Of a stretch of 64,000 bases of DNA, positions 42,764 through 48,816 are shown in pieces. The translations under genes and the position numbers were made by a program. Every line of letters begins with the position of its first letter. The first letter of the stretch is position 1. A model generated the notes under the pieces. The model did not search any database, was not told the DNA's origin, and saw nothing but the letters and a program-made list of their open reading frames with translations. The stretch is from Promethearchaeota archaeon (GTDB lineage: Archaea > Asgardarchaeota > Lokiarchaeia > Sigyniarchaeales > SOKP01), in NCBI GenBank assembly GCA_016839705.1, contig JAEOTR010000035.1, forward strand, positions 32,001 through 96,000. The letters run 5' to 3'.

Positions 42764-44116
42764 CTATTTTAACAACTTTTTTTCTTTTGCATCTAAATCT
42801 AGCCAATCAGCAATATTTTTGAGTTGTTTTCGTGATGATCCGCATAAAATTTTTAAAAAAGGGAGTAAAGATTGAATGAAATCAATCTGGGAAATCTCAT
42901 ATTTTTTGTTTAGTTTATTTACTAATTCTTTCTGAGCACTAGTCAAAGAGTAGAATCCTCCAGAAGAGTATCTTGGAAAAACTACTCTTCGAAAACCTTT
43001 TGCTTCAGGAGTCTCGTTTCTAGACAAAGCAACCCCGCCTGCAAAGAGGTCAAAGAAATAAGGTAATAAACCCCAGTATTGATTTATACGGATTCTCCCA
43101 AAGATTTCGTCAGCTAATGAAAGATTTTCATAAGCATCAACAAGCTCTCTGTTAGTTTTTATGAAAGTAGGAAGGTTTTCATTGACCCATTTATATAAGA
43201 AATTATAATCAACGTCAGATTTATCAGTTAAGTTTCGAGCCTCTCTTAAGGAAGATACACGAAATAAATCTCGTATTAAAGAAAAGATTTCTTCTAGCGA
43301 ATCCCGACGTAGGCTAAGGATTAATTCCTTGACATTACCTTCTATCTTACCTTGACTAATACCCTGAATATCATTGATAACACCTCTTAGATCACCATTA
43401 TTCTTCTCAATTATTAATTCTAAATCCTCTTCTTTAAGTTGGGTTATATTTTCTTTTTTGAGGATACTGCGAATTATTCTTAAGACTTCTTCTTTAGATA
43501 AGCGATTTACCTCAAATCTAGGTATCTTATTATAGAGTGGCTGAAGATTGGTCTTATACTCGTTTGAACACATTATAATAGGAAATTGTGTGTTCTCGAT
43601 TAAATCAAGAATAGTTGGAACGGCACCACGATCTTGGACTCCATATATACCGTCTATCTCATCAATCAGGATAAGTTTCTCCTTAGATTGAGTTATGAAG
43701 TCCATTATCCCTCGAGATTTCGTAGTTTCTTTCAATTTTTTTTCTAATGTTGCTCTTGTTCGTGTATCAGAAGCATTGGTTTCTACTACTTCCATATTAA
43801 GATCGTTAGCAAGCGCATATACAATTGAAGTCTTCCCAATACCTGGTGGTCCTTCTAGTAAGATTGCTGCTTTATCAAATTTAATTTTTAACTTTTCCTT
43901 TTGCTCCTTTTCTATAACAGTTCTATTAAATGCCTTAATCCTATTATTTTCCTGATTTATTCTTTTCCGTTCATTGAAGAAATTTCTTACAAATTTGGTT
44001 AATTCTTCAGGAAGTTTAACTCTTTGATTCCCCACCCTTGCTGTAGGTAATGCCATATCTTTAAGACTTTTTGGTCTATATTTTTCAACCCATGGCATCT
44101 CTATCGTATTAGACAT
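42764..44116 (-). CDS. rfcL: Replication factor C large subunit
   Basis: PWVEKYRP, GPPGIGKTS, NASDTR, LIDEIDG, GDLRGVIND. Confidence 0.92.
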   Translation of the reverse strand: MSNTIEMPWVEKYRPKSLKDMALPTARVGNQRVKLPEELTKFVRNFFNERKRINQENNRIKAFNRTVIEKEQKEKLKIKFDKAAILLEGPPGIGKTSIVYALANDLNMEVVETNASDTRTRATLEKKLKETTKSRGIMDFITQSKEKLILIDEIDGIYGVQDRGAVPTILDLIENTQFPIIMCSNEYKTNLQPLYNKIPRFEVNRLSKEEVLRIIRSILKKENITQLKEEDLELIIEKNNGDLRGVINDIQGISQGKIEGNVKELILSLRRDSLEEIFSLIRDLFRVSSLREARNLTDKSDVDYNFLYKWVNENLPTFIKTNRELVDAYENLSLADEIFGRIRINQYWGLLPYFFDLFAGGVALSRNETPEAKGFRRVVFPRYSSGGFYSLTSAQKELVNKLNKKYEISQIDFIQSLLPFLKILCGSSRKQLKNIADWLDLDAKEKKLLK

Positions 44117-44125
44117 TATATTCAC

Positions 44126-45172
44126 CTACAGATTCTCACTAAATAAACATAATTTTGATAATAAAGCAGAAATTTGGATATCATCATCTCTACCATCAAG
44201 CGCTCTAAAATCTGCTTCAGCTATTAAATCGATTATATTACATCTCACATATTTACTTAAAGGCAACTTATTCATTTCTATAAGTAAATTATTAAAAACT
44301 TCATGAGCGTTATACTTATAGCTAGAAACTATTTTACGAGCTAACTCCCTTGATTTTGGAAAATCACCTTTTAAGGCTAATAATAGCAGATTTTTTATCT
44401 GGTCGTTTTTAAATTTTTGAGCATTTTCAAATACAATATTTTTATCGATTTCATTTCCTCTTACACTACATAGTTGTAGGATATCTATAGCTTGAGAAAT
44501 CTTACCTTTGGAGATTTTATACAAAATTTCAATGACTTCTTCTGTAATTTGTAATACTTCTTTATCGGCAATTTCTGATATCAAATTTTTAAAGTTCTCA
44601 AATTTAACTCGAGATATTAGAAAAATCTGGCATCTACTTATAATGGGATCAATAATACTTGAAATTTTGGTTGTAATTAATATCATCCTACAATTTGAAC
44701 CATAGATTTCCATTAACCTTCTGAAACCCTGTTGATTAGATCCCAACGCTTCAAAATTCTTTACAACTAAAATTTTAAAAGGAACATCCCCTAAAGCTTT
44801 CAGTTGCACAAACGGTTTAACTTTAACCTGTATAAAAGCAGGTGTTGTGATTCTTCTTCCCGCCATACTCCCGATTTTACTTGTTGAGACATATGCTTCT
44901 GATCTTGCCTGCGTTCTCTCATCTTCGCTTAGGGGAATATTTGCATATACTAGTTTAAAATTAGCATCAAAATTTTTACCAAGAAATTCTTTAGAGAATA
45001 AGGAAGCGAAAGTAGCCTTTCCTATCCCTTCAGAGCCGATAAATAGCATATGAGGAAAATTCCTCTGTGTAATTATGTTTTTTAACGCTTCTTTTATTTC
45101 TAATCTACCACAAACTTGTTCAAGGCTTTGTGGATAGTACTTTATTCTCCAAATCGGGATTTCTTCAGTCAA
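44126..45172 (-). CDS. Replication factor C small subunit 2, degenerate ATPase
   Basis: WRIKYYP, GSEGIGKAT, Walker B replaced by VVKNFEAL, IISRC retained; RFC collar domain. Confidence 0.85.
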   Translation of the reverse strand: MTEEIPIWRIKYYPQSLEQVCGRLEIKEALKNIITQRNFPHMLFIGSEGIGKATFASLFSKEFLGKNFDANFKLVYANIPLSEDERTQARSEAYVSTSKIGSMAGRRITTPAFIQVKVKPFVQLKALGDVPFKILVVKNFEALGSNQQGFRRLMEIYGSNCRMILITTKISSIIDPIISRCQIFLISRVKFENFKNLISEIADKEVLQITEEVIEILYKISKGKISQAIDILQLCSVRGNEIDKNIVFENAQKFKNDQIKNLLLLALKGDFPKSRELARKIVSSYKYNAHEVFNNLLIEMNKLPLSKYVRCNIIDLIAEADFRALDGRDDDIQISALLSKLCLFSENL

Positions 45173-45212
45173 ATTTCTATAATCTTTATTATAATTTTAT
45201 CTAAATACAATC

Positions 45213-46184
45213 TTAAATTCCCATCTTTTCAATAATTTTAGCTAAAAGTGCTGAAACCTGGATTTTTTCACTTGCTCCTTGGCTTATCCGATAATCAATT
45301 TCTCCGATATAAGCCCTTAAGGTAGGAATCTTATTTGGCTCGACATTAACTCGCGGTAATGCCTCTGTTAATTGTCTTATAAAGTTTCTACTATCAAGAG
45401 TTTCCATTGAATCAATTATTTCTCGCGATTTCCCAAAGTCTTTATTCTTTAGTGCCATAGTTAGATCTTCCAATGTTTTTTCATCCATAAATCCTGAAAT
45501 TCTTAAAATTTCGTTTAATTCTAAATTCTCTAGTAGTTCTAGTGATACTGACATCTGAAGTGTATTAATTGCTTTTCGTAAATCTCCTCCTGAAATGAAA
45601 AATAATAATTCAAAAAATTTCTCAGCTTTATCTGCGGGAATCTTCAATTTTTCATTTTTGGTAATATGCTTTAATCTTTCAATAATTTTTTCTTTGGGAA
45701 GGCCTACAAATCTGAATACTGCACATCGAGAGATAATTGGATCTATAATGCGGTTTATATAATTACATAATAAAATGAACTTAATATTCAACGATGCTTT
45801 TTCAATTATTCTTCTAAGTGCTTGTTGAACTTGACCAGGAATGTTATCCGCTTCATCTAAAATAACGAATTTTAAGGAATTCTCTTTGATGAGGTTTTGA
45901 TTAACGAAGTTCTTTAAAACATTTCTTACAAAATCTATTCTTACCGTATCAGAAGCGTTCACTTCTAATAAGTTCACGCTTAGATCTTCGTTATTAAGGA
46001 AATTTTCAGCAATGATTAAAGCAGTACTCGTTTTTCCAGTCCCCGCAGGACCTGTAAAAATCATATGGGGCATATTTGGATTCTTGATGAACTCTTTTAA
46101 ACTATTAATTGCAACGTTTTGACTTACAATATCTTCGAAAGAGTGCGGCCTGTATTTTTCAGTCCAGGGAATTTCTAAACTCAT
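45213..46184 (-). CDS. rfcS: Replication factor C small subunit 1
   Basis: PWTEKYRP, GPAGTGKT, NASD, ILDEAD, IISRC, GDLRKAIN. Confidence 0.95.
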   Translation of the reverse strand: MSLEIPWTEKYRPHSFEDIVSQNVAINSLKEFIKNPNMPHMIFTGPAGTGKTSTALIIAENFLNNEDLSVNLLEVNASDTVRIDFVRNVLKNFVNQNLIKENSLKFVILDEADNIPGQVQQALRRIIEKASLNIKFILLCNYINRIIDPIISRCAVFRFVGLPKEKIIERLKHITKNEKLKIPADKAEKFFELLFFISGGDLRKAINTLQMSVSLELLENLELNEILRISGFMDEKTLEDLTMALKNKDFGKSREIIDSMETLDSRNFIRQLTEALPRVNVEPNKIPTLRAYIGEIDYRISQGASEKIQVSALLAKIIEKMGI

Positions 46185-46928: not shown

Positions 46929-47213
46929 TTAAAAATGCCTTGAGGACGTTCCATCCCAAGCTTTCACGGCGGGATCTTCAGCCCCACACGCAGGACATTT
47001 CTGATTGACTTCCCAACTCTCTAAAGCAGGATGCACTCGAGTAAATAATCCCCCACATGATTTGCAAACTAAGTATTTCGCTCCACATCCCGCACACATC
47101 TTGAGTTGGCCTTTTTCCACGAAAGGAAAAGCTCTCCTCATCCACTCATCATGTGCAAGAGAAAACTGATCTTTTCCGCAAACAGCACAGTGTTTACCAT
47201 CTTCTTGAGCCAT
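46929..47213 (-). CDS. Small protein with four CxxC pairs
   Basis: CAVC, CAGC, CKSC, CPAC. Confidence 0.8.
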   Translation of the reverse strand: MAQEDGKHCAVCGKDQFSLAHDEWMRRAFPFVEKGQLKMCAGCGAKYLVCKSCGGLFTRVHPALESWEVNQKCPACGAEDPAVKAWDGTSSRHF

Positions 47214-47429
47214 ATTTTTAACACTATTTTTTTACATTTTCTATATTATAATAATAAATAAAATACTTAATTAAAAATTAAACGATTTCGAAAAACAGAC
47301 ACAATTTAAGGTCAAATTCTTGGTTATTTTGACAGACACTTATGTGTAAAAATGGGAAAAATGTGGGAATATTGTGAAATGTCATTTTTTTCATCAAGAA
47401 GATTTATATTGATCCCAATGGTGTTATTA

Positions 47430-47701
47430 CTAGAACATTAAATAATTGCCAACCAGATTCGTTCAAATCATTTAGATCTGGAATCTCGATATTACTAAAG
47501 AAGGGAGTGTTAAATATTAGATACCCTAAGAAGGTATCTTTGTAGAAATCCTTGGAGATTAGATATGCATTAATAATTACTGGTTAATCTAAGGATCTTT
47601 CACACTTAACATTTTATCAACTCAATCAGATCTTTTCCATTTCCATATTAAGCAAAACAGAAATATCTCCTAGAAGAAAACATCTAGGAGATTTCTTTTT
47701 T
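47430..47701 (+). ncRNA. Candidate structured non-coding RNA (unknown class)
   Basis: TATA-like TTTATA at 47403; nested helices forming a three-way junction; terminal hairpin and T tract; no ORF. Confidence 0.5.
47660..47701 (+). terminator. Stem-loop followed by T tract
   Basis: ATCTCCTAGA-N7-TCTAGGAGAT followed by TTCTTTTTT. Confidence 0.6.
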
Positions 47702-47724
47702 CATTCCCATAAGATTAATATTTT

Positions 47725-48669
47725 CTACTGATTTGATGTGGTATACTCTACAACTAAACGCACAATATCTGCCTTTCGATAAGACGATAGGACTTTAATA
47801 TTTTTTTCACTACAAAATTGCTTTAATTGTTTTACTGTCCATTTTTCAAATTCGATATTCATCATATTTTCTATTGGATTTTCTGAGGATTGGGTGTTTT
47901 CTAATACTTCTATTGCTTCAATTTCTCCTAATTCTTTGTTAACATGAATTCGGAGTTTAGCGCCCTTAATTTCAAAGATTTCTTTTGGAAAACTTGTAAT
48001 TGCTTCCCACTCTTTTTCTTCTGATTGGTTGCTAAATATTTCTGTTTTTTTTATAGTTTCACCATATAGGATGTTGTTTCCAACAAGTATGTTTTTAGGT
48101 CTGAAGCTACCAAGGGTATTAGTTTTTAATATATTTTCTAAAATCTCTTGTGTTCTTCGATTCTTTTTTAAATTCTCATATGAAGGAGTTTTCTTAGCGT
48201 TGGTAGAAAAATATTTATTTAAATTATGTTTAACTAAAAATTTCTCACTCTGATTGCTCCTATTAAAGGATATACTTTCATGATTTATTATTTTTGGAGT
48301 TATGGGTGTATCGTTATCAATAATAATAGCTCTCTTTTGGAAACCAAATGTATTAAGAAATTCACTTGGTTCATCACCTTGATCAATCGAGACAATTTTA
48401 CATCGATGAAAGGATGAGGAATTCATTAGTTCTTTCTGAATTTCTGAAGCAACTCGTGAAGCTATGAATTTCTTTCTAACTGATGATGAAATTCCTTTGC
48501 ATATATAAATTCTACGAATCTCTTCCTTAACAATTATAGCAACTTGCGAAGAAAATAATATCCCTTCTCCATTATTCTGATGAAAGATTTCTTCTGTTAT
48601 ACGTAATCTACGACGCTCTCCATTATCCTCAACTTCAAAGATCATAAAATCAGTATACGTTTCTAACAT
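47725..48669 (-). CDS. Gelsolin-domain protein with C-terminal SAP/HeH-like motif (start uncertain)
   Basis: VAIIV..EIRRIYICKG..SSVRKKFIA...SIDQGDEPSEFLNTF; WTVKQLKQFC..KNI....RKADIVRLV. Confidence 0.72.
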   Translation of the reverse strand: MLETYTDFMIFEVEDNGERRRLRITEEIFHQNNGEGILFSSQVAIIVKEEIRRIYICKGISSSVRKKFIASRVASEIQKELMNSSSFHRCKIVSIDQGDEPSEFLNTFGFQKRAIIIDNDTPITPKIINHESISFNRSNQSEKFLVKHNLNKYFSTNAKKTPSYENLKKNRRTQEILENILKTNTLGSFRPKNILVGNNILYGETIKKTEIFSNQSEEKEWEAITSFPKEIFEIKGAKLRIHVNKELGEIEAIEVLENTQSSENPIENMMNIEFEKWTVKQLKQFCSEKNIKVLSSYRKADIVRLVVEYTTSNQ

Positions 48670-48816
48670 GATATTCCAATGAATTTGTACTCTTTTTATA
48701 ACTATAATCTGAGAGAGAGGGGATAATTTGTGATCTGCATTCAATAATACTTAAGACAAATGAAAAGTAGGTTAAATAAAAATAAATAATATTTAAAATT
48801 GAAAAATAAGAATGAA

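Follow-up and report, generated by a model that had tools for sequence, protein, structure and literature searches.

The enterobacterial small RNA GcvB is a trans-acting repressor of mRNAs for peptide and amino-acid ABC transporters, including oppA and dppA (PMC9988348). It depends on Hfq and acts on more than 30 targets, with which its pairing is imperfect and located in part at CA-rich enhancers. The gene for another small RNA, micF, sits next to ompC, which encodes a paralogous porin, and the two are induced together. MicF represses ompF (PMC9988348). Among archaea, a single-stranded linker of Methanosarcina mazei sRNA162 masks a ribosome-binding site in trans (PMC3510493), and s479 of Haloferax volcanii binds the RNA of znuC1, which belongs to a zinc transporter (PMC8155600). 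In alphaproteobacteria, AbcR1 is a small RNA reported to regulate ABC transporter expression via the translation initiation region (PMC4152367).

The window analyzed here is a stretch of 64,000 nucleotides from a Promethearchaeota archaeon. It contains a putative small RNA that resembles GcvB in having a peptide ABC transporter as its predicted target, but shows no sequence match to GcvB in Rfam. In contrast to GcvB, it has one dominant target and a near-perfect predicted duplex of 20-26 nt over the AUG. The swap logic proposed for the window RNA is the same as that of MicF. However, micF is divergent from ompC, whereas the Asgard RNA lies in tandem with and upstream of its neighbor, under a duplicated paralog promoter, and the neighboring paralog differs at silent and leader positions. 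Masking of an initiation site by a single-stranded segment, as proposed for the window RNA, recalls sRNA162. sRNA162, M. mazei sRNA41, and s479 come from another phylum, differ in sequence, and were found by experiment in cultured strains; unlike the Asgard RNA, they are not known to be linked to a duplicated paralog promoter or to several RNAs with one seed. AbcR1 is bacterial and has multiple targets and two modules; no Rfam match connects it with the window RNA. The window RNA is outside the GcvB, MicF, and sRNA162 families.

Locus and predicted transcription unit

The putative RNA of about 270 nt spans 47432-47702 on the + strand and contains no ORF; its start is placed from the TATA spacing and its end from the U tract. 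It is flanked by a divergent double zinc-ribbon gene (46929-47213, minus strand), which marks the syntenic locus in eight genomes, and by a convergent gene (47725-48744, minus strand) with a C-terminal Rho-N/HeH-like motif (weak Pfam matches, below cut-off). The convergent gene, presumably gelsolin-like according to an earlier note made from the sequence alone, lies outside the system. Its convergence with the RNA, which that note made part of its reading, is incidental, as in most homologs the downstream gene is oppA-like. At 42764-46184, the window carries three clamp-loader (RFC-like) genes in tandem.

No ORF of at least 50 aa was found between the two flanking genes. In a search for hidden coding on both strands, stops were found in the registers inspected by eye and no conserved start was seen. 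An open frame of 75-83 codons runs through the conserved seed-plus-hairpin module (see below) in two relatives and is absent from the others. An Rfam search had been proposed as a check; comparison with Rfam 15 (SRP, RNase P, tRNA, 5S, riboswitches, GcvB, and MicF) gave no match in the window at the gathering threshold, the best hit scoring 24 bits where 59 were required (E 0.96), which is at chance level. ARAGORN predicted no tRNA at the locus. It called a tRNA-Sec at G000:C18:39386-39471, where G000 is this genome. BLAST and nhmmer searches of the same genome found a single full-length copy of the element and no further one. A MITE or repeat with terminal inverted repeats was considered and rejected on this ground; the other carriers share only the seed and, in some, the hairpin.

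A purine-rich BRE-like stretch and a TATA box (47403-47410) are located at 47395-47410 on the + strand. In 17 members, a homologous TTTAWAT precedes the module, and the TATA box is also kept in G027, the closest relative. Further upstream, degenerate operator-like boxes (47354-47382, + strand) were recognized by promoter-to-promoter similarity within loci. In relatives, the full boxes recur ahead of the RNA as well as ahead of the neighboring oppA paralog. The copy in the window has a low box-profile score, and only half a box is left. In this genome, the profile revealed no clear regulon and no strong box at either promoter.

Judged from its sequence, the element is an independent intergenic unit with a promoter, a 3' end signal, and no conserved ORF, as is characteristic of a trans-encoded small RNA. 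The earlier proposal of a free-standing, ORF-free Asgard RNA of about 270 nt on the + strand that has a TATA box of its own and ends in a hairpin is thus borne out as a prediction.

Folding and conservation

The motifs quoted in the earlier note (TTTATA, helices, and hairpins) were all found where it had placed them, and RNAfold reproduces the three-way junction that it described. The junction makes up a variable 5' domain (47505-47614, + strand) composed of helix P1 (47505-47513/47606-47614), hairpin P2 (47519-47539), and helix P3 (47541-47562/47584-47604). Pair probabilities are 0.5-0.67 for P1, 0.86-1.0 for P2, and about 1.0 for the terminal hairpin. Compared with shuffled sequences, the whole RNA displays a modest folding signal (z -1.6 to -2.05). 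The junction alone scores -2.2 and the terminal hairpin alone -3.9. The signal stems mostly from the hairpin, since z drops to -0.14 without it. Folding of the minus strand is equally strong or stronger (z -2.6 to -2.9), so the strand, previously argued from G-U pairs, is not fixed by folding. It is fixed by the substitutions in relatives, which also point to the + strand.

G027 is 74% identical and ungapped across the RNA region. It keeps 7/7 pairs of P2, 7/9 of P1, and 16/23 of P3. P2 is kept in G027, G004, and G025 with a changed loop or stem and is the sole 5'-domain helix kept among the long forms. The 5' domain ranges from about 0 to 300 nt among homologs and is deleted in the syntenic copy of G066. 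The predicted RNA length ranges from about 75-80 nt in G066, where the TATA box is followed by the seed and then the hairpin, up to 390 nt. These comparisons indicate that the 5' domain is dispensable and accessory to RNA function, and the junction is not a conserved functional core. Alignments and folds define a conserved linker, TTTTATCAACTC (47612-47623, + strand), which in several relatives pairs with an upstream GAGTT segment and closes the 5' domain. The conserved core of the RNA, 47612-47651, had been overlooked.

The first interpretation of the locus was a structured RNA or switch acting via the junction and two mutually exclusive pairings of 47474-47481, with 47453-47458 (pairing A) or with 47627-47633 (pairing B). 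The junction does fold, both pairings are present in the ensemble (about 0.67 for A and 0.2 for B), P2 is kept in four genomes, and pairing B touches the first three seed bases. However, G027 keeps only 4/7 of pairing A and 2/7 of pairing B, so the switch is not conserved and is peculiar to this single sequence. The 5' domain is deleted or replaced in most homologs, and no + strand gene lies downstream here to be controlled by a riboswitch or another cis-acting switch. Where an oppA paralog is present downstream of the RNA, it has its own promoter. A switch of this kind is highly improbable.

The 3' end consists of a sequence-conserved terminal hairpin and a U tract (47660-47701, + strand; core 47665-47692), a candidate terminator or 3'-end protector. 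Across members, 87.5% of the hairpin cells are paired and six pairs show two-sided changes. The covariation score of the hairpin was reached by 0 of 500 shuffles, and single-side changes in its core stem are G-U on the + strand. These features indicate that the terminal hairpin is an RNA helix. Comparison with relatives, suggested earlier as a check on the fold, therefore upholds the hairpin but not the switch pairings. Single-sequence folds of about ten members also contain an extended basal stem formed by the 3' end of the seed and the tail, with a register that shifts between clades. RNAalifold did not recover this stem, and it is not counted as evidence.

Antisense seed and its predicted target

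The antisense seed (47631-47651, + strand) is the exact complement of positions -5 to +16 of a gene on contig C49 (G000:C49:141469-141489, ATG at 141474). A BLAST search of the genome returned this one 21-nt exact match (opposite strand; E about 0.002-0.003). Outside the locus, the 3.36-Mb genome contains no other exact complement of at least 16 nt. The C49 start ranks first among 5010 start windows, with a pairing energy of -28.8 kcal/mol (mean -11.2, sd 3.9). The net binding of the full RNA to C49 is -23.9 kcal/mol, compared with -8.9 +/- 3.4 for random starts. The mean unpaired probability of the seed is 0.68 in the window RNA and 0.17-0.83 across 17 members, and net binding is still favorable. 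In G027, the seed has decayed and pairs at -18.4.

The target gene begins with MEMEKK and is oppA/dppA-like. The contig ends 61 codons into the gene, and this assignment is made by N-terminal identity (61%) and UbiA synteny, not by a Pfam match of its own. Its orthologs belong to the family-5 solute-binding proteins (PF00496) and are likewise located downstream of a UbiA gene. In G006 and G027, the target family heads an oppA-X-oppBCDF (opp/dpp) operon. As with GcvB, the target is thus the mRNA of a peptide ABC solute-binding protein. The target sequence is equally conserved in genomes with no detectable module and in a sister genus, and hence there is no sign that the window RNA constrains its target.

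The pairing bears on two other readings of the element. One takes it as nothing more than a terminator region belonging to the convergent gelsolin-like gene, with a U-rich seed that matches the A-rich oppA start by composition. Against this, most homologs lack the convergent gene, and among 2821 ordinary 3' end windows in this genome, none pairs with the target better than -24.8. This reading is extremely improbable, even though archaeal terminators are U-rich and the hairpin, which lies 33 nt from the stop of the convergent gene, carries a U tract on either strand. In the other reading, a mini-ORF on the minus strand (MEMEKI) imitates the start of oppA and uses the AGGAG of the hairpin as its ribosome-binding site. 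The reverse complement does read ATG GAA ATG here, about 20 nt after AGGAG. The first ATG is lost in most members and the second in G075 and G027, the stops occur at differing places, and the ATG losses are changes that keep G-U pairs on the + strand. Such a mini-ORF is barely credible.

Seed variation and target preference

At positions +1 to +11 of 23 seed-target pairs, 215 cells are Watson-Crick, 29 are G-U, and nine are mismatches; as the genomes are related, these cell counts, along with the 13 of 13 comparison and the permutation given below, overstate independence. All six seed columns able to wobble, those opposite G or U, do so, and the three U's opposite +5 to +7 are invariant. Seed changes are mostly compatible with G-U, which favors RNA-RNA pairing from the + strand. 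A-to-G changes opposite U occur in 10/46 cells, whereas the strand mirror, T-to-C opposite A, occurs in 1/115. The A-to-G changes are spread over several lineages and run against the AT bias. At positions -8 to -1, own targets pair better than shuffled ones (5.64 vs 5.19).

The asymmetry between A-to-G and T-to-C argues against a function at the DNA level, such as a protein-binding site common to the oppA start or a decaying remnant left by an inverted duplication, the hairpin then being a palindromic site or simply a terminator. C-to-T changes would be expected from the AT bias too, the hairpin stem is nearly invariant in sequence, and an inverted duplication would yield perfect complementarity at birth. 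The strand-asymmetric pattern opposes that bias, however, and the hairpin has a variable loop, G-U pairs, and two-sided changes. Moreover, seed and hairpin travel jointly between unrelated loci, and the element is single-copy here, unlike a MITE. A DNA function is very unlikely.

In all 13 testable genomes, the distant core oppA pairs better with the seed than the neighboring gene does, with a mean difference of -11.9 kcal/mol. Full-length binding agrees on the preference for the distant copy in the 10 genomes for which both were computed. The neighboring paralog differs at -2, -4, and -6 and at the silent positions +12 and +15 in 10-11 of 13 genomes. These escape changes may represent one ancestral event. 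In G004 and G025, the neighbor starts with MELE and the seed still matches MEME.

RNA family and promoter duplication

A covariance model built on the seed-plus-hairpin module detected it in 26 of 54 genomes of the source genus, whose members are deposited mostly as Promethearchaeota. Covariance models found 0 modules in about 98 genomes of other genera of the order and none in five genomes of family f2. Eight metagenome contigs match a pattern of the module. The module type of the window is carried by 21 genomes. In 17 genomes, an oppA-like gene in the same orientation, a second oppA paralog, is located about 270-305 nt downstream of the module. In four genomes (this genome, G027, G066, and G002), the module lies at the zinc-ribbon locus with no adjacent oppA. 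Seed and hairpin move together between unrelated loci. The UbiA tree is too weakly resolved to order gains and losses of the oppA neighbor at the window locus.

Similarity between the sequence that precedes the RNA and the neighboring oppA promoter was seen at 13 of these 17 loci. In the best case, the RNA promoter and the paralog promoter agree at 76% over 176 nt, TATA box included. The TTTATA of the window is homologous to this TATA box.

Two loci deviate from these arrangements. At L129 (G035:C66), the RNA lies between UbiA and oppA itself, and its pairing to that oppA is the weakest of the set. At L139 (G002:C14), a syntenic copy, the module is joined directly to an operator-like box and the TATA box is seemingly deleted.

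A literature search, in which few subscription papers were covered, found no earlier description of this RNA family and no trans-acting small RNA with a defined mRNA target in Asgard archaea. The comparative data argue that this is a real RNA family, one with no earlier record.

Other carriers of the antisense sequence

Antisense copies of the oppA start are also present in other transcripts. In 26 of 30 loci of one tfb gene (L195-L224, from 30 genomes of the genus), the 3' UTR starts with an antisense copy of oppA codons 2-9. Pairing energies are -24 to -40 kcal/mol for most of these copies, and a change compatible with G-U pairing is frequent. The copy is lost in this genome (C25). The tfb gene is convergent with rpl2 in the loci inspected.

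In this genome, seed-bearing 3' modules are found at G000:C30:23706-23795, C37:7111-7199, and C65:6050-6130, after small ORFs near large regulator-like genes. In addition, a hairpin with an antisense loop (G000:C73:43460-43530; L248:2050-2150; z -3.1) lies about 100 nt downstream of a tRNA-Gly. The loop covers, in antisense, the Shine-Dalgarno-like site of oppA and its first codons, and the hairpin is kept in at least six other genomes (G004, G064, G065, G066, G068, and G069). It is possibly an RNA derived from a tRNA trailer. The C65 and C73 carriers rank the same oppA first among 5010 starts, while C30 ranks it seventh and C37 ninety-third.

The C30 carrier follows a 25-aa basic ORF with an AGYNPV-like motif in common with G077 and G069. 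The promoter upstream of the C30 member (L146, L137) resembles that of the downstream Rab-like GTPase gene, which would make it a second case of tandem promoter duplication. Another seed-plus-hairpin element was seen after a gene of about 93 aa in L231, L236, and L237 (G036, G070, and G061), where the covariance model is negative.

These carriers allow a tentative picture of the core oppA mRNA as the hub of an RNA network, in which unrelated transcripts (the small RNA, the tfb 3' UTR, the 3' ends of micro-protein arrays, and the tRNA-Gly hairpin) carry long, near-perfect antisense copies of its start. Peptide uptake might thereby be tied at the post-transcriptional level to several regulons, or one RNA might guide many 3' UTRs in a microRNA-like manner. 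They also bear on the direction of regulation. If it were reversed, the oppA 5' region, or a fragment of it, would act as a regulator or sponge of many 3' UTRs, with the window RNA as a decoy or partner. Many complementary sites do lie close to 3' ends, namely in tfb 3' UTRs, in micro-protein cassettes, and in the hairpin after tRNA-Gly. Conservation of the target extends beyond that of the module, and a precedent is OppX, reported in Salmonella as a sponge of MicF derived from the opp 5' UTR (PMC9988348). A reversed direction is nonetheless unlikely: the pairing covers the AUG and so must be in competition with translation of oppA, the window RNA offers no ORF for regulation, and a promoter in common with the escaping paralog fits repression of the core copy.

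Discussion

The window RNA is probably a trans-acting antisense small RNA that represses translation of the first gene of the opp operon in the manner of GcvB and MicF. The proposal draws on complementarity, conservation, wobble-biased variation, target preference, promoter duplication, and a dispensable 5' domain, all of them read from genome sequences. In the model, the TATA promoter would drive transcription from about 47432 to 47702, and the 3' hairpin and U tract would end the transcript. The pyrimidine-rich seed, probably largely unpaired, would nucleate pairing, giving a duplex of about 20-26 nt with the leader and the first five to six codons of the mRNA for the family-5 solute-binding protein that is core to the whole genus. 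The duplex would lie over the AUG, just 3' of an AGUGA Shine-Dalgarno-like site, and would block 30S loading. It may also promote mRNA decay. Three LSM-domain matches were found in this genome, and an Sm-like protein may take part. Alternatively, the pairing could activate or stabilize the mRNA.

In most relatives, the RNA is located upstream of the paralog, often under a duplicated promoter, and the paralog pairs poorly with the seed. This arrangement suggests that one signal would raise the paralog and lower the core oppA. The signal that induces the alternative binding protein would then reduce the core one, in a MicF-like swap. In this genome, the seed is perfect although no oppA paralog adjoins the RNA.

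Among prokaryotes, Asgard archaea are the nearest relatives of eukaryotes. One Asgard strain in culture, MK-D1, reportedly grows on amino acids and peptides, which makes a peptide importer a relevant target. The RNA, its target, the predicted duplex, and natural variants that serve as controls make post-transcriptional control in Asgard archaea testable both in vitro and in a model archaeon. If the proposal is true, the RNA would be a convergent counterpart of bacterial control by GcvB and MicF, and such a regulator may have originated by promoter duplication beside a paralog whose start region pairs poorly.
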